IMG/VR virus record: IMGVR_UViG_3300043446_002680
Span: 7,950 to 71,949 of that record
DNA length: 64,000 nucleotides
Reading direction: 5' to 3' (one strand)
Origin: a virus
The notes beneath the pieces were generated by a model. It saw only the letters and a list, made by a program, of their open reading frames with translations, was not told the DNA's origin and did no database searches. Positions 1,513 through 8,123 of the stretch are shown one piece after another. Position numbers and translations under genes: made by a program. The number at the start of each line of letters is the position of its first letter. The first letter of the stretch is position 1.

Positions 1513-1586
1513 TGGTTGCGGGTCTAGGAGTCGAACCTAGAACGAGGGCTTATGAGACCTTCATGATACCTTTTCAACAACCCGCG
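1513..1586 (-). tRNA. tRNA-fMet (CAT)
   Basis: Cloverleaf starting CGCGGG, C1:A72 mismatch, loop CT-CAT-AA, encoded CCA. Confidence 0.85.
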
Positions 1587-1794
1587 ATTGTCTGGGTATG
1601 GACCTGAATTCCCTAAAACCCAGGTCCATAGTCTTCTGTGTCTTGGACGACAGTCCTTAGGCTAGACATCCGTACCTTGCAGCGCCAATTGCAAGTGTAT
1701 TTTAGTTGACGGGGCTCCCACCCGCCTCGCTCTGGGAGCACTGCTAACCACTAGGGATTGTGGCAACAAGTGTAGCGGGACTAATTTTTTAGGA

Positions 1795-1893
1795 ATGGCT
1801 GGTCAATGTTTTTGTTACCTGGCACTCTGCTGAATCAGGATTTGCACCTTTCAGGAGCGGATACTCTGAATACCCACCTTTAACAACGACCAT
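1795..1893 (-). ncRNA. Candidate structured ncRNA with long terminal stem and T-loop-like hairpin
   Basis: TGGTCGTTGTT/AACATTGACCA stem enclosing AGG-TGCAAAT-CCT. Confidence 0.4.
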
Positions 1894-1895
1894 CT

Positions 1896-1982
1896 ACCAT
1901 ATTGAAACACACTCATCACACACCGTACAACAGGCGATCAACTCTGTTGTCTTATAGGCATCAAAATGTGCTTCAATATGGT
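1896..1982 (-). ncRNA. Candidate ncRNA with 16-bp closing stem and internal hairpin
   Basis: ACCATATTGAAGCACA/TGTGTTTCAATATGGT; G-U wobble favours minus strand; inner ACAACAG/CTGTTGT. Confidence 0.55.
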
Positions 1983-2054
1983 GCCAGTGTTGCTGGCCGG
2001 GGAATCCCGGTCCTCGTCGCTTAGAGAACGACTACTTACCACCCCGCTCTAAAC

Positions 2055-2128
2055 CATATTAGAACACACTACTCATCTGCTTTGGACAACCGCTGCAATT
2101 TGTCTGTTCGGTAATGTGTTCTAATATG
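2055..2128 (-). ncRNA. Duplicated structured ncRNA, copy 1
   Basis: 18-bp stem around a core near-identical to 5552..5624. Confidence 0.7.
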
Positions 2129-2149
2129 CTCGTTACTTACTATACCCAT

Positions 2150-2178
2150 ATTATAGCAACTATTGTCGCCGCTGTCAA
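2150..2178 (-). promoter_or_regulatory. Sigma70-type promoter
   Basis: TTGACA-17-TATAAT, perfect consensus. Confidence 0.85.
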
Positions 2179-2199
2179 CCTGTTGTATTAGAACTACAG

Positions 2200-2500
2200 T
2201 GTTGGCTACTAGTTCCCACCAGCCCCAACTTGAGTTGTCACCCTGTCCCGGCCCTTTAGTAGAGGTGGCCAGCCTTTGTTGTACCTTTACCAATGATAAC
2301 CCAATATCAACCTCCCGGAATCGCCCGGGAGGGGAGGCCGTATCAACTAGCCTATGCCAAACCTAACGCGGGCATCTACGCCATACTGAGTAACCGGGGT
2401 ATGGCCCGGGGATTCTGTTCAGGGACGCACTGTTGTTGTCGTTTAAGAGCGAGCGGGTCACGCAGCTCTCCCCGGGGGGTTGGGCCCAATCCTGGCCCTG
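2200..2500 (-). ncRNA. GC-rich multi-hairpin non-coding block (one or more ncRNAs)
   Basis: Many inverted repeats (CCTCCCGG/CCGGGAGG, GCCATAC/GTATGGC, CAGGG/CCCTG); no credible ORF. Confidence 0.45.
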
Positions 2501-2504
2501 TATA

Positions 2505-2579
2505 TGGTGCCCGGTGATGGAATCGAACCACCGCTATTCGCCGTGTAAAGGCGACGTTTTACCATTAAACTAACCGGGC
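2505..2579 (-). tRNA. tRNA-Val (TAC)
   Basis: Cloverleaf, TCGCC-TT-TAC-AC-GGCGA, CCA. Confidence 0.95.
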
Positions 2580-2582
2580 TAG

Positions 2583-2659
2583 TGGAAGTAGGGATCGGAT
2601 TCAAACCGATGAAAAGATGCTTTGCAGGCATCCGCATTAGATCACTCTGCCACCCTACT
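2583..2659 (-). tRNA. tRNA-Cys (GCA)
   Basis: GATGC-CT-GCA-AA-GCATC, U73, CCA. Confidence 0.92.
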
Positions 2660-2665
2660 ATGTTT

Positions 2666-2742
2666 TGGCTCCCCAGCGTGGGCACGATCCACGGACCTTC
2701 TGATTAACAGTCAGACGCTACTACCAACTGAGCTACTGGGGA
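2666..2742 (-). tRNA. tRNA-Asn (GTT)
   Basis: TCTGA-CT-GTT-AA-TCAGA, CCA; T-loop ATCGTGC. Confidence 0.92.
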
Positions 2743-2750
2743 ATAAAATT

Positions 2751-2842
2751 TGGTGGAAGGTGTGGGATTCGAACCCACGGTCCATATTACTACAGACAAC
2801 ACCTTAGCAGGGTGCCGATTTAAGCCGCTCATCCAACCTTCC
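2751..2842 (-). tRNA. tRNA-Ser (GCT)
   Basis: Long variable arm, CT-GCT-AA loop, CCA. Confidence 0.92.
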
Positions 2843-2886
2843 AAATTCAACGCTATTATTAAGGAACGATTACTGCTATTTCAATG

Positions 2887-2915
2887 AGTATAGCAACTAA
2901 TCACCTTGTTGTCAA
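2887..2915 (-). promoter_or_regulatory. Sigma70-type promoter internal to the tRNA array
   Basis: TTGACA-17-TATACT. Confidence 0.8.
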
Positions 2916-2922
2916 CTTGATA

Positions 2923-2999
2923 TGGCACCACTGGCAGGATTCAAACCCACGACCCCCGGGTTCGTAGCCCGGTGCTCTATTCAGCTGAGCTACAGTGGT
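2923..2999 (-). tRNA. tRNA-Arg (ACG)
   Basis: CCGGG-CT-ACG-AA-CCCGG, CCA. Confidence 0.93.
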
Positions 3000-3002
3000 A
3001 AT

Positions 3003-3644
3003 CTAGTAGATTAAACGATCTACAAATTCACTTAACAGTGTATGATGATGGTATTCATGCCAGTAAGGCTGCATGTATGGTTTACTGTACCAGTAGATGT
3101 CACTTTCTGGATGTGGGCCTATTAGTCCAATGCGTCCTTGTATGACAGCAGCACTGTCACCATTGGTATACCGAGCAATGACTCGATGCCGACTGCCATG
3201 ATCTACCAAGGCACAGCCATCATAAAAGTACATGTATTCTCTGTGTTTCTGCCAGTCAACGGCGACCACAGTGCCAAAACTGCGTCTGATGTCTGTGTTT
3301 TCTCTGCGTATATACTGCACAGGCTCAATGCCACGCACAATGTCAAAGTAGTGGTGTCCGGCCCAATACGCACCCATGCAGATGCCTAGATAAGCACCGC
3401 CAGTGGCCACATACTCACGCACAGCATCTGCACCTGATTCGCATATTTTATGCCAACTATCACTGTCGCCGATGCCGCCAGGAAAGCACACAAGATCATA
3501 TCTGCTGAGTGCTAGTGATGTCAGCGATCTGCTGTCAATACAGTGTACTGAGTATTCTGCACTAAGTGCTCGAATTAGGCCGTGTGCGCTTTGTACACTG
3601 CATTCAGGATGATGCACAAACACGGCCACTGTGGGCTTGATCAT
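3003..3644 (-). CDS. BPL-N-like class I glutamine amidotransferase-fold protein
   Basis: FPGG, GGAYLGICMGAY nucleophile elbow, GPHPE. Confidence 0.8.
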   Translation of the reverse strand: MIKPTVAVFVHHPECSVQSAHGLIRALSAEYSVHCIDSRSLTSLALSRYDLVCFPGGIGDSDSWHKICESGADAVREYVATGGAYLGICMGAYWAGHHYFDIVRGIEPVQYIRRENTDIRRSFGTVVAVDWQKHREYMYFYDGCALVDHGSRHRVIARYTNGDSAAVIQGRIGLIGPHPESDIYWYSKPYMQPYWHEYHHHTLLSEFVDRLIY

Positions 3645-3665
3645 AGTGATATTTAGTGGTGTTGT

Positions 3666-3741
3666 TGGGGTAACCTATGAGGATTGAACTCATACTTTCT
3701 CGGTCACAACGAGAGGTGCAGACCACTACACTAAGGTCACC
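3666..3741 (-). tRNA. tRNA-His (GTG)
   Basis: G-1/C73, TT-GTG-AC loop, CCA. Confidence 0.92.
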
Positions 3742-3748
3742 ATTGATC

Positions 3749-3823
3749 TGGCACCACCGGAGGGACTCGAACCCCCATAGGACGCTTTAGAAGAGCGTTG
3801 CCTTTCCATTAGACTACGGTGGT
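3749..3823 (-). tRNA. tRNA-Arg (TCT)
   Basis: ACGCT-CT-TCT-AA-AGCGT, CCA. Confidence 0.92.
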
Positions 3824-3830
3824 ACATGTA

Positions 3831-3909
3831 TGGTGCCGCCTCTTGGAATCGAACCAAGTTCTCGAGTTCTTCAGACTCGTGCTGAAATGACCACACTAGC
3901 TCAAGCGGC
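3831..3909 (-). tRNA. tRNA-Phe (GAA)
   Basis: CGAGT-CT-GAA-GA-ACTCG, CCA. Confidence 0.9.
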
Positions 3910-3913
3910 ATTG

Positions 3914-3988
3914 TGGTGCTGATAGCAGGATTTGAACCTGCGGCCTCTGACTTACCAAGTCAGCGATCTTCCCCTGATCTATATCAGC
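3914..3988 (-). tRNA. tRNA-Thr (GGT)
   Basis: CTGAC-TT-GGT-AA-GTCAG, CCA. Confidence 0.93.
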
Positions 3989-3993
3989 ATGGA

Positions 3994-4068
3994 TGGAAGG
4001 GGGTCTGGGTTACGATCCCAGTCACCTACTTTCAAAGAGTAGTATCTGCTCCAATCGATTTACCCCCA
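3994..4068 (-). tRNA. tRNA-Gln (TTG)
   Basis: CTACT-CT-TTG-AA-AGTAG; U1:U72 mismatch; T-loop ATCGTAA; CCA. Confidence 0.8.
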
Positions 4069-4074
4069 ATTGTT

Positions 4075-4150
4075 TGGCCTGACCGGAGGGACTCGACCCC
4101 CGACCCGCTGGGTAGAAGCCAGCTGCTCTAATCCACTGAGCTACGGTCAG
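4075..4150 (-). tRNA. tRNA-Arg (TCT), second divergent copy
   Basis: GCTGG-CT-TCT-AC-CCAGC; T-loop lacks one T; CCA. Confidence 0.8.
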
Positions 4151-4156
4151 ATTGTT

Positions 4157-4232
4157 TGGTACCTGTTCCTGGGTTCGAACCAGGGACCTTTCGATTATCG
4201 GTCGAATGCTCTACCAACTGAGCTAAACAGGC
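4157..4232 (-). tRNA. tRNA-Ile (GAT)
   Basis: TTCGA-CC-GAT-AA-TCGAA, CCA. Confidence 0.93.
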
Positions 4233-4237
4233 ATGGA

Positions 4238-4332
4238 TGGTGGAGAGCGGAGGAGTCGAACCCCATCCCCTTCTTCAGCGGAACCTAGTTTTCAAGACTA
4301 GTCGGCGAACCATCTCGCCTGCATCACTCTCC
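4238..4332 (-). tRNA. tRNA-Ser (TGA) with 8/4 acceptor/T-stem
   Basis: GGAGAGTG/CGCTCTCC 8 bp; GGGG/CCTC 4 bp; CTAGT-CT-TGA-AA-ACTAG; long V-arm. Confidence 0.85.
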
Positions 4333-4337
4333 ATGAG

Positions 4338-4413
4338 TGGTGGTAATGGTAGGACTCGAACCTACGATAGATACCATATGAAGGTACCGCATTGGCCGCT
4401 ATGCTACATTACC
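4338..4413 (-). tRNA. tRNA-Met or Ile2 (CAT)
   Basis: GTACC-TT-CAT-AT-GGTAT, CCA. Confidence 0.88.
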
Positions 4414-4465
4414 AATAAATGGCGTCGGTGGGGGTTCCAAACCGCTCACCGAGATAAATAACTGT

Positions 4466-4972
4466 ATGCTTAAATGTTTACATTGTCAAACTGATCTACT
4501 AAAAAAAGATCAAAAGAAATTCTGTTCTAGGTCATGTGCTGCGTCACATAATAATACCGGCAGGAGACGCCATTCAAAACCAGAATCAATACATTCAATG
4601 GTCAAATTATGTAAGACCTGCGGCAAAGAAACGCCTAGGCGTGTATTTTGCTCTGACAGTTGTAATCCTAAAAAAAATAGGACTCTTTCAGACGAAGAAA
4701 AATTAAAAAAACACAGAGCTAATCACAATGAAGCATGGGCAAGATATATGGCTAAACGAAAAAATCAAACTCCAAAAGATGTTGACATCAAGAAACTTCA
4801 AGAGTTTTATGCTAATTGTCCAAAAGGATACGAAGTTGACCATATAATCCCGATATCTAAAGGTGGGTTACACACATTAGAAAATCTCCAATATCTTACT
4901 GTAAGTGAAAATAGACGGAAGTCTAATAAAATATTGGCTCCGAGTGAGGGACTCGAACCCCCGAGGGTATGA
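4466..4972 (+). CDS. HNH homing endonuclease with N-terminal Cys4 zinc-finger repeats
   Basis: EVDHIIPISKGGLH...NLQYL...N; CxxC/FCSxxC repeats; TAAATA box just upstream; antisense in tRNA array. Confidence 0.9.
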   Translation: MLKCLHCQTDLLKKDQKKFCSRSCAASHNNTGRRRHSKPESIHSMVKLCKTCGKETPRRVFCSDSCNPKKNRTLSDEEKLKKHRANHNEAWARYMAKRKNQTPKDVDIKKLQEFYANCPKGYEVDHIIPISKGGLHTLENLQYLTVSENRRKSNKILAPSEGLEPPRV

Positions 4973-5019
4973 ACCGGCGGTTTTGGAGACCGCTGCAATC
5001 GCCGCTATGCGAACCCGGA
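4935..5019 (-). tRNA. tRNA-Trp (CCA) with long variable arm
   Basis: GCGGT-CT-CCA-AA-ACCGC; 14-nt V-region with GGT/ACC stem; G73; CCA. Confidence 0.85.
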
Positions 5020-5025
5020 ATTGAT

Positions 5026-5100
5026 TGGTGGAGGATAACGGATTCGAACCGATGACTCCGCGGTGCAAACGCGGTGTTTTCCCAATTATACTAATCCCCC
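5026..5100 (-). tRNA. tRNA-Ala (TGC)
   Basis: G3:U70, TT-TGC-AC loop, CCA. Confidence 0.95.
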
Positions 5101-5105
5101 AATCT

Positions 5106-5180
5106 TGGCGGTCTGTACGGGAGTCGAACCCGTCTCTATGGCGTGACAAGCCATTATTCTTACCGATGAACTAACAGACC
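5106..5180 (-). tRNA. tRNA-Asp (GTC)
   Basis: ATGGC-TT-GTC-AC-GCCAT, CCA. Confidence 0.95.
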
Positions 5181-5184
5181 AATA

Positions 5185-5262
5185 TGGTACGGGCACTTGG
5201 ACTCGAACCAAGAACTTACTGGTTAAAAGCCAGTTACTCTAACCAAATTGAGTTATACCCGC
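5185..5262 (-). tRNA. tRNA-Lys (TTT)
   Basis: ACTGG-CT-TTT-AA-CCAGT, CCA. Confidence 0.95.
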
Positions 5263-5270
5263 ATCGTGTT

Positions 5271-5345
5271 TGGCACACCCAACGGGAATCGAACCCGTCT
5301 TTGCGGATTGAAAGTCCACTGTCCTAACCGATAGACGATGGGTGC
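5271..5345 (-). tRNA. tRNA-Glu (TTC)
   Basis: GTGGA-CT-TTC-AA-TCCGC, CCA. Confidence 0.95.
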
Positions 5346-5350
5346 ATAAC

Positions 5351-5427
5351 TGGTGCCGGTTGTCGGATTCGAACTGACGACCTTTGCTTTACAAGAGCAC
5401 TGCTCTGGCCAACTGAGCTAAACCGGC
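5351..5427 (-). tRNA. tRNA-Thr (TGT)
   Basis: CT-TGT-AA loop, cloverleaf, CCA. Confidence 0.92.
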
Positions 5428-5432
5428 TTATT

Positions 5433-5520
5433 TGGTGGGGACTGAAGGAATCGAACCTAACTGCCGCCACTCTGCATATTATGGCAAGTGATTTACAGTC
5501 ACCCGCAGAGAACAGCCCCC
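5433..5520 (-). tRNA. Non-canonical tRNA-Tyr-like gene (GTA) lacking a D-arm
   Basis: 8-bp acceptor, GGTGA-CT-GTA-AA-TCACT, enlarged V-region, AGG-TTCGATT-CCT, ACCA end. Confidence 0.75.
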
Positions 5521-5551
5521 ATATAAGTTTACAGCACTCTAGTGAATGCTG

Positions 5552-5624
5552 GTAATAAAGCAGACTACTCATCTGCTTTGGACTTGCCGCTGCAATTTGT
5601 CTGTTCGGCAGTCTGCTTTATTAC
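5552..5624 (-). ncRNA. Duplicated structured ncRNA, copy 2
   Basis: 17-bp stem of different sequence around the same core as 2055..2128. Confidence 0.7.
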
Positions 5625-5738
5625 TGACAGTTTTTACACATCCGGGTTACCGCCCCAGACTTATCATCCCTGTCACCGCCCACATTATAGCTGATGTTTA
5701 TAGTGCCAGCAGGCTCGCGTTGCCTTACACTTTACCGC

Positions 5739-5780
5739 ACAAAACAAAAGACCCTAGGTCTTTCGATCCTAGGGTCTTGG
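5739..5780 (-). terminator. Intrinsic terminator (attenuator) upstream of the tRNA array
   Basis: AAGACCCTAGG/CCTAGGGTCTT stem, GAAA loop, followed by TTGTTTT. Confidence 0.85.
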
Positions 5781-5831
5781 AAGTGTTGATGTAAATTACT
5801 TTTACATCTGGATCTCCCGAGACCCCGGACC
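5765..5831 (-). promoter_or_regulatory. Putative antiterminator helix
   Basis: GGTCCGGGGTCTCGGGAG (5814-5831) pairs with CTTCCAAGACCCTAGGATC (5765-5783), the whole 5' arm of the terminator. Confidence 0.7.
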
Positions 5832-5930
5832 TTTGTGCTCATTGGTGCGATCATAACTCGACGACTGCCATGAGCACATGGGTGTGCTATGACTAATCTT
5901 TGCTGTTACTGATCCCACTGTTAGTTGCAT
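5802..5930 (-). CDS. 42-aa leader peptide MQLTVGSVTAKISHSTPMCSWQSSSYDRTNEHKGPGSREIQM (not in ORF track)
   Basis: GAGGA RBS 5 nt before ATG; lies between promoter and terminator. Confidence 0.75.
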   Translation of the reverse strand: MQLTVGSVTAKISHSTPMCSWQSSSYDRTNEHKGPGSREIQM

Positions 5931-7877: not shown

Positions 7878-8123
7878 TTAGACAAAACGGCTAGCACGAC
7901 TGCCGGTTACATCACGTGCACTCACGGAGTAAGTCATACGTCCGTCGGAATTGGGTTTGGTGACAACCTTCAAGCCTGCATGACGAAACTCAGTCATACG
8001 TGCACGAATATTCTTGATACCATACAGTGATTCGGCTTGGCGTGCACTCAGGCTACGACCAGTACCACGCAGATAGTTCTCAAGAAAAACGTTTTGGGTT
8101 GAAGAAATTTTAGTAAATGCCAT
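7878..8123 (-). CDS. Small winged-helix DNA-binding protein
   Basis: Basic; LSARQAESLYGIKNIRARMTEFR HTH-like pattern. Confidence 0.65.
   Translation of the reverse strand: MAFTKISSTQNVFLENYLRGTGRSLSARQAESLYGIKNIRARMTEFRHAGLKVVTKPNSDGRMTYSVSARDVTGSRASRFV

Follow-up and report, generated by a model that had tools for sequence, protein, structure and literature searches.

For cytosolic and bacterial transfer RNAs (tRNAs), the cloverleaf is regarded as a universal form. The subject of this report is a tRNA-Tyr(GUA) gene of unusual connectivity, with the family to which it belongs, at positions 5433–5520 of a 64,000-nucleotide (nt) stretch of viral DNA (positions 7,950 to 71,949 of IMG/VR record IMGVR_UViG_3300043446_002680), referred to here as the window. 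The gene lies on the (-) strand, is read from 5520 to 5433, spans 88 nt including an encoded ACCA, and has no D hairpin between its acceptor and anticodon stems. From comparison with its relatives we think it likely that the rewired RNA is a functional tRNA of non-cloverleaf form.

The nearest described molecules are the allo-tRNAs and tRNA-Sec-like RNAs of the 8/4 type (Mukai et al. 2017, PMC5389517; papers cited here by PMC number are represented by parts of their text), which share with the window gene an 8-base-pair (bp) acceptor stem, a short T-stem, a 12-layer acceptor/T branch and occurrence in phage tRNA clusters, and whose long variable arm and long D-stem, capped by a tetraloop, have counterparts in it. 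Their D-arm is a normal hairpin, whereas in the window gene the 5′ strand and loop of the D-arm appear to sit in the variable loop and to form a pseudoknot; their identity is mostly Ser (G73 or U73), in contrast to the A73 and GUA anticodon found here. The 8/4 tRNAs reported from phages in the available part of that paper are of Ser and His identity, and Tyr is present only in the reference list. Canonical bacterial class II tRNA-Tyr has the same GUA, A73, G1:C72, variable stem and standard T-loop, the identity set of the bacterial tyrosyl-tRNA synthetase (PMC5370408). It differs in its 7/5 branch, in the presence of a D hairpin and in a variable hairpin that is free, where the window gene has an 8/4 branch, no D hairpin and a variable loop that carries a D-stem strand.

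Other unusual tRNAs are less similar. The D-armless mitochondrial tRNAs (mitochondrial tRNA-Ser(AGY) and those of nematodes) and the evolved 'mini HisT' from E. coli (PMC11551756) also have no D hairpin; they are shortened and have no D helix, unlike the window gene with its 6-bp D-helix equivalent, GG loop and full length. The tRNA-Tyr of phages T5 and T6 are likewise phage-encoded and have a variable region unlike that of the host (PMC11555353, PMC13096335), but are ordinary cloverleaves. Circularly permuted tRNA genes (PMC3978253) share a non-canonical order of segments; in these the halves are swapped and processing restores the cloverleaf, whereas the window gene has normal termini and a displaced internal segment. 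The accessible text of a review of non-canonical natural tRNAs contains no such topology (PMC7609411), that of a paper from 2024 says that the bacterial tRNAs known to date are all cloverleaves (PMC11551756), and we found no published description of the rewired family in the full-text literature, a body that leaves subscription journals and the supplements of PMC5389517 outside its scope. What is new is the chain topology of the tRNA; the 8/4 plan is already known.

Structure and covariation of the rewired gene

All coordinates of the gene are on the (-) strand, and family frequencies refer to 90 distinct sequences collected as described below. The RNA opens with the 5′ strand of the acceptor stem, GGGGGCUG (RNA positions 1–8; 5513–5520), which pairs with CAGUCCCC (positions 77–84; 5437–5444), and closes with the discriminator A73 (A in 90/90) and an encoded CCA (71/90), at 5433–5436. 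Only 9 nt lead from the acceptor stem to the anticodon arm, which is normal and carries GUA: a UU linker (positions 9–10; 5511–5512; UU 75, AU 9, UC 3, CU 2 and UUC 1), strand a, CUCUGC (positions 11–16; 5505–5510), and a G at the nucleotide-26 site (position 17; 5504; G 80, A 9, C 1). Strand a thus occupies the site of the D-stem 3′ strand, directly 5′ of the 26-equivalent G and the anticodon stem. The anticodon arm GGUGA-CUGUAAA-UCACU (positions 18–34; 5487–5503), whose 7-nt loop has U33 and the anticodon GUA (5494–5496), is followed by the variable-stem 5′ strand UGCC (positions 35–38; 5483–5486), an A/U-rich linker AUAAUAU (positions 39–45; 5476–5482), strand b, GCAGAG (positions 46–51; 5470–5475), a D-loop mimic UGGC (positions 52–55; 5466–5469), the variable-stem 3′ strand GGCA (positions 56–59; 5462–5465), the dinucleotide GU, and the T-arm U-AGG-UUCGAUU-CCU-U (positions 62–76; 5445–5459). 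Strand b is the complement of strand a and the equivalent of a D-stem 5′ strand within the variable loop. The anticodon arm separates the two strands, which are 29 nt apart and together with UGGC make a 6-bp helix and a 4-nt loop that are not a hairpin.

A preliminary description of the gene, made from its letters alone, had listed the 8-bp acceptor stem, the 9-nt interval before the anticodon arm, a 28-nt variable region, the exact complementarity of CUCUGC to GCAGAG with UGG next to it, and the ACCA end. All of these are present, the variable region lying between the anticodon stem and the three Watson–Crick pairs of the T-stem, and the eighth acceptor pair covaries in relatives. Its 3-bp T-stem needs amendment: the three pairs stand, and the stem is better described as four layers (a U.U and 3 bp), giving an 8/4 arrangement. 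Its TGCCA/TGGCG stem was drawn in the wrong register, which is lost in relatives such as those with UGAC...GUCA; since covariation supports only UGCC (35–38) with GGCA (56–59), the UGG is unpaired.

Relatives were collected in stages. An exact 25-mer from the 3′ end of the gene matched 14 viral contigs, in whose upstream parts CUCUAC/GUAGAG and CCCUGC/GCAGGG replace CUCUGC/GCAGAG. Three wider pattern scans followed, and about ten false positives of the second were dropped. The widest pattern constrained just the anticodon loop, the T-loop and the unusually long spacing between them, and figures derived from it refer to the matches listed. A filter for at least seven of eight acceptor pairs at a set offset left at least 124 loci; two that passed (L103 and L104) were dropped as they do not show the features of the family and reach just 35.5 bits with its model, and the final set from viral contigs is at least 122 loci with 90 distinct sequences, 85–96 nt long. 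Neither the widest pattern nor one that left the anticodon arm free constrained both strands of the proposed pairing, and the filter tested acceptor pairing alone. Eighteen of the listed pattern matches failed the filter and are mostly canonical, intron-bearing or unrelated; two of the rejects, L108 (5′ end cut off) and L144 (6/8 acceptor pairs), score as family members at 74.8 and 73.2 bits. With the family covariance model R1 the window gene scores 98.5 bits (E 3.4e-32), and the next best match in the window 29.6 bits.

The 90 sequences were aligned by MAFFT without structural information. Homologues keep the 6-bp pairing foreseen in the preliminary description, and do so with covariation: 99.6% of the cells of the a:b helix are paired, all six pairs have changes on both sides, and 30 distinct a-strand sequences are represented, with six pairs formed in 88 of the 90 sequences and five in the other two. 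The acceptor stem behaves similarly (99.3% of cells paired; both-side changes in 8/8 pairs), its eighth pair being GC in 69 sequences, AU in 10, UG in 10 and other in 1, and the 5-bp anticodon stem is paired in 100% of cells with both-side changes in 3/5 pairs. The T-arm has three invariant or covarying pairs, and its first layer is a standard pair in 37/90 (GU 15, GC 14, AU 6, UA 2) and U.U in 53, including the window gene. A smaller set of 27 close homologues has the proposed structure paired in 702 of 702 cells. Across the full alignment the figure is 96.6%, against 74.3% in shuffles, of which none in 500 matches the observed pairing or covariation; all slid registers drop to 38–60% paired. 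Given the alignment only, RNAalifold predicts the a:b helix, and pairs the 26-equivalent G with an invariant U 3′ of the anticodon stem (GU 80, AU 9).

The second, crossing helix is also conserved. The variable stem is fully paired in 87/90 sequences, its 3′ strand ending 1 or 2 nt before the T-stem, with matched variants UGAC/GUCA, UGGC/GCCA, UGUC/GACA, UACC/GGUA and UGCU/AGCA and all four Watson–Crick types at the third position. It was scored as the best of four registers, for which we estimate chance agreement of random 4-mers at about 8%; judged by these comparisons the pairing is far beyond that level. The linker between its 5′ strand and strand b is 4–11 nt long, mostly 7–8, and is A or U in 632 of 678 letters (93%), and strand b is followed by NGG in 90/90 (UGG 79, CGG 10, AGG 1). 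In one sequence, an exact 6-mer complement within a 28-nt stretch has an estimated probability of about 0.02 if four 6-mers are allowed; the complementarity alone is therefore only mildly unlikely, and the a:b pairing is significant because of the comparative data. On those data it is very secure that both a:b and the variable stem form, each held by compensatory change, and since the variable stem crosses a:b the fold is a pseudoknot.

The gene would thus probably encode a functional elongator tRNA-Tyr(GUA) on the 8/4 plan of allo-tRNAs and tRNA-Sec, with altered chain connectivity. Its elements would be an acceptor stem of 8 bp, a T-stem of four layers, a D-stem of 6 bp whose 4-nt loop has the GG, and a variable stem; the D-stem 5′ strand and GG loop would sit within the variable loop and not, as usual, ahead of the D-stem 3′ strand on the side of the acceptor stem. 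The a:b helix would correspond to the 6-bp D-stem of the tRNA-Sec and allo-tRNA type, with UGGC as its tetraloop, and would stack through G26.U on the anticodon stem; 5 bp of anticodon stem, the G.U and 6 bp of a:b would make 12 layers, equal to the 12-layer acceptor/T branch. The UGG after strand b would replace G18/G19 and meet the T-loop at the elbow, preserving the L shape. In a normal tRNA the strand 39-43-44 would continue helically into 10-13, so it is geometrically natural for the D-stem 5′ strand to be attached at the anticodon stem's 3′ side. The same window holds a tRNA-Ser(UGA) of the known 8/4 type (4238–4332, (-) strand), with an 8-bp acceptor stem, 6-bp D-stem, AUGG tetraloop, long variable arm and 4-bp T-stem; since this is the same design with normal connectivity, it supports reading strand b and its loop as a displaced half of a D-arm. 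Speculatively, the arrangement may have originated when a duplicate of the 5′ half of the D-arm was inserted into the variable loop, which is tolerant of such changes, and the first copy was later lost.

Tyrosine identity and the Tyr slot of tRNA sets

Positions expected of a translating tRNA-Tyr are retained. GUA is present in 46/46 loci matched by the pattern that left the entire anticodon arm free, G1:C72 in 87/90 family sequences, and G1:C72 and A73 both in the window gene. T-loops are canonical throughout the family, with UUCGAUU in 57/90. Bacterial tyrosyl-tRNA synthetase (TyrRS) reads G1-C72 and the variable arm (PMC5370408). In the window gene the variable stem, which covaries in the family, is 4 bp long and encloses a 17-nt 'loop' that is engaged in the a:b helix. 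A TyrRS domain (PF00579) was not found in the gene's own record or in five large phage records, and a co-evolving phage synthetase is thereby ruled out as an explanation in those six records; since no phage TyrRS was found, charging would fall to the host enzyme. The host TyrRS would recognize A73, G1:C72, the anticodon and the variable stem that the RNA still has, and the charged tRNA would decode UAY codons during infection. At four loci (L045, L052, L072 and L138) the rewired Tyr genes have C1:G72, the archaeal/eukaryotic type, and no encoded CCA, a hint that the TyrRS of their hosts may follow another identity rule.

The gene is invisible to standard tools. ARAGORN makes no call at it, as had been anticipated, and its calls overlap only 1 of the 122 listed family loci. 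The Rfam tRNA model RF00005 (gathering threshold 29 bits) gives no match to the window gene even at E up to 10, and none at the position of the rewired gene in records G001 or G002. The Rfam tRNA-Sec model RF01852 gives only a sub-threshold match to the window gene, 19.7–24.5 bits against a gathering score of 47. The tRNA-Ser(UGA) noted above is also missed by ARAGORN and scores 41.6 bits with RF01852.

In the tRNA sets where it occurs, the rewired gene typically fills the Tyr slot. In its 71,949 bases the full record, which CheckV estimates as 21% complete and which is probably part of a jumbo phage, has 25 ARAGORN tRNAs for 19 amino acids, with Tyr alone missing. The rewired gene had been described as the only Tyr tRNA of the window, which holds for the window and for the whole record. 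Two near-complete jumbo phages (344 kb, 99%, and 316 kb, 91%) have 32 and 26 ARAGORN tRNAs, respectively, again for 19 amino acids with Tyr alone missing; in both, all Rfam tRNA matches lie within 20 kb, and the rewired gene heads a dense block. Across 22 loci with at least 17 amino acids covered, Tyr is missing in 21, and the next most often missing, Asn, in 4. The 344-kb phage (record G002) also has, at the edge of its tRNA region (L173:60-134), an ARAGORN-called CUA tRNA labelled 'Pyl', which may be a suppressor tRNA.

When 50,697 GenBank phage records were searched by blastn with four members of the family, nothing matched, and a first, wider query matched the neighbouring tRNA-Thr only. 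In bacterial genomes a structural pattern found 19 loci, 18 of them true members (L161 was dropped), mostly in Planctomycetota, with others in Bacteroidota and Proteobacteria metagenome-assembled genomes. Several of these bacterial members lie in dense arrays of 13–32 tRNAs otherwise without Tyr.

A search for other anticodons on the same scaffold, with the family model over 171 loci (about 1.55 Mb), gave just two intermediate matches. One, L099:724-826 (-), scores 48 bits with R1 and is an apparent tandem paralogue of the rewired Tyr gene at that locus, 7 nt downstream of it, with a:b strands CCAUGU/ACAUGG, AGG, a variable stem UGGC/GCCG, and an anticodon arm whose stem has 6 bp and whose loop, at about 17 nt, stands instead of the 7-nt anticodon loop. 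The other, L143:7970-8057 (+), at 47 bits, is a possible RNA of the rewired scaffold with an 8-bp acceptor stem, just 5/6 a:b pairs, the loop CUUCUAA (UCU, an Arg-like anticodon), a G discriminator and an odd T-loop, UUCGAUG.

Counterevidence and alternative explanations

Several observations weigh against a translating, rewired tRNA-Tyr. The minimum free energy (MFE) fold of the single sequence is a different, rod-like structure at -32.4 kcal/mol, compared with -24.2 kcal/mol for the nested rewired structure without the variable stem; this rod-like fold is not that of a tRNA, is not conserved, and is not the alignment consensus by RNAalifold. Just one nucleotide, C55, separates the GG from the 3′ strand of the variable stem, a spacing that may be too tight for the canonical elbow contact. 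Eleven of the 122 listed loci also carry another Tyr tRNA called by ARAGORN, and the four Planctomycetota genomes checked also have a canonical tRNA-Tyr, within a housekeeping cluster, so the rewired form is not always the sole Tyr tRNA; as the canonical gene of these bacteria stands elsewhere, the rewired form is a trait of phage and array tRNA sets and not of host core sets. As to transcription, six metatranscriptome runs hold part of window 4900–5900, and in the four compared nearly every piece is a conserved portion of a tRNA from some other organism. In run X19 a 295-nt contig (depth 18.4) spans 5466–5524 with 5 differences, and its overhang matches the T-arm of a relative. Such contigs show no ends and the libraries may hold DNA, and they provide no usable evidence of transcription.

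The strongest competitor is that the RNA is a tRNA-shaped decoy or anti-defence RNA that binds or distracts a tRNA-Tyr nuclease or TyrRS while host tRNA-Tyr does the decoding. In favour of this, tRNA-Tyr is a known target of Septu and of retron-Eco7 PtuAB, and phage tRNA-Tyr genes counter these systems (PMC13096335, PMC11555353); some irregular tRNAs are charged yet unused in translation (PMC5389517); and array-bearing bacteria retain a canonical tRNA-Tyr. The rewired RNA nevertheless keeps all of its features for translation, including the invariant anticodon loop, A73, CCA, the T-loop and the 12-layer acceptor/T branch. A decoy, moreover, need not be the missing isoacceptor, and this gene fills the only empty slot of otherwise complete 20-amino-acid sets; because it does so, a pure decoy is the less likely reading, and we consider it improbable.

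A role in processing or regulation of a polycistronic tRNA transcript, for example as an RNase P or RNase E entry site at the head of an array, has a still smaller chance of being correct. The window gene is the first of its array, and 51 of the 122 listed loci are likewise first, with a downstream tRNA but none upstream within 300 nt; the others are internal (34), last (17) or have no tRNA within 300 nt (20), and a processing element gives no role to the invariant GUA (46/46) or to the Tyr identity set.

Post-transcriptional cleavage and ligation, as in permuted or split tRNA genes, could in principle yield a normal cloverleaf, since moving the two displaced segments would restore a normal D-arm, and permuted tRNA genes do exist in some algae (PMC3978253). 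The acceptor ends of the rewired RNA are already in normal order, however, no bulge-helix-bulge or intron-like motif was seen, and the internal 10-nt segment would have to be cut out and pasted elsewhere. The variable stem that encloses strand b covaries, which argues that the displaced arrangement itself is under selection. To our knowledge there is no enzyme for such a cut-and-paste of an internal tRNA segment, and rearrangement of this kind seems very improbable. A decayed tRNA-Tyr pseudogene with a chance 6-mer complement, to which the failure with ARAGORN and the Rfam tRNA model and the U.U in the T-stem might point, is refuted by at least 122 loci and 90 distinct sequences with compensatory changes in every helix and invariant functional positions. 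The preliminary description had argued for a rewired, pseudoknotted topology and not decay, and this is borne out by the covarying crossing helices, the retained A73, G1:C72, GUA and T-loop, and the standing of the gene as sole Tyr gene of its record.

Genomic setting and significance

The rewired gene lies just upstream of a dense array of 20 ARAGORN tRNAs at 1513–5427, all on the (-) strand, and is its 5′-most gene. It had been called the first tRNA after an attenuator; its place at the head of the array stands, and the supposed attenuator is a mere terminator-like hairpin at about 5745–5780 (-), some 225 nt upstream of the gene, where nothing indicates attenuation. Between this hairpin and the gene there is a long inverted repeat, UAAUAAAGCAGACU ... 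AGUCUGCUUUAUUA (5545–5625, (-) strand), and no strong sigma-70-like promoter was found in the interval. Further tRNAs hidden in the array gaps were sought and rejected, as all T-loop-like motifs between 1500 and 5600 belong to ARAGORN tRNAs, tRNA-Ser(UGA) or the rewired gene. Structural irregularity may extend to further tRNAs of the array: the tRNA-Phe at 3831–3909 (-) is 79 nt long, with its anticodon at position 38 and a partial Rfam tRNA match of 26.4 bits, and the tRNA-Trp at 4935–5019 (-) is 85 nt long and scores 44.8 bits. Within the array is also a 213-amino-acid open reading frame (3003–3644, (-) strand) with a glutamine-amidotransferase-like/BPL_N domain (Pfam E 8.5e-14).

As to why such a tRNA would be selected, the variable arm is where Septu and retron-Eco7 PtuAB cut tRNA-Tyr (PMC13096335), the tRNA-Tyr of phage T5 is said to owe its resistance to a distinctive variable loop (PMC13096335, PMC11555353), and tRNA arrays have been discussed as putative anti-defence units (PMC12803027). 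Escape from host nucleases that cut the tRNA-Tyr variable arm is plausible for the rewired RNA because its variable arm is locked in a pseudoknot, and by analogy with these systems we propose it tentatively as the selective reason. More broadly, it is possible, if doubtful as a whole, that the family is a translationally active, natural class of non-cloverleaf tRNAs in uncultured phages and mobile arrays that evolved as a Septu/PtuAB counter-defence and has gone unseen because tRNA finders require a cloverleaf.

Experiments are possible, as the gene is present in tRNA arrays of two cultured Planctomycetota isolates: Neorhodopirellula pilleata Pla100, with two copies, and Bythopirellula polymerisocia Pla144. 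If the interpretation as a translating tRNA-Tyr is correct, phage and tRNA-array sets that are annotated as having no tRNA-Tyr would actually be complete, and the tRNA core would be shown to tolerate a changed chain topology. The family would then offer a natural scaffold for orthogonal tRNA design, and a concrete case in which structural escape from tRNA-targeting immunity could be tested.

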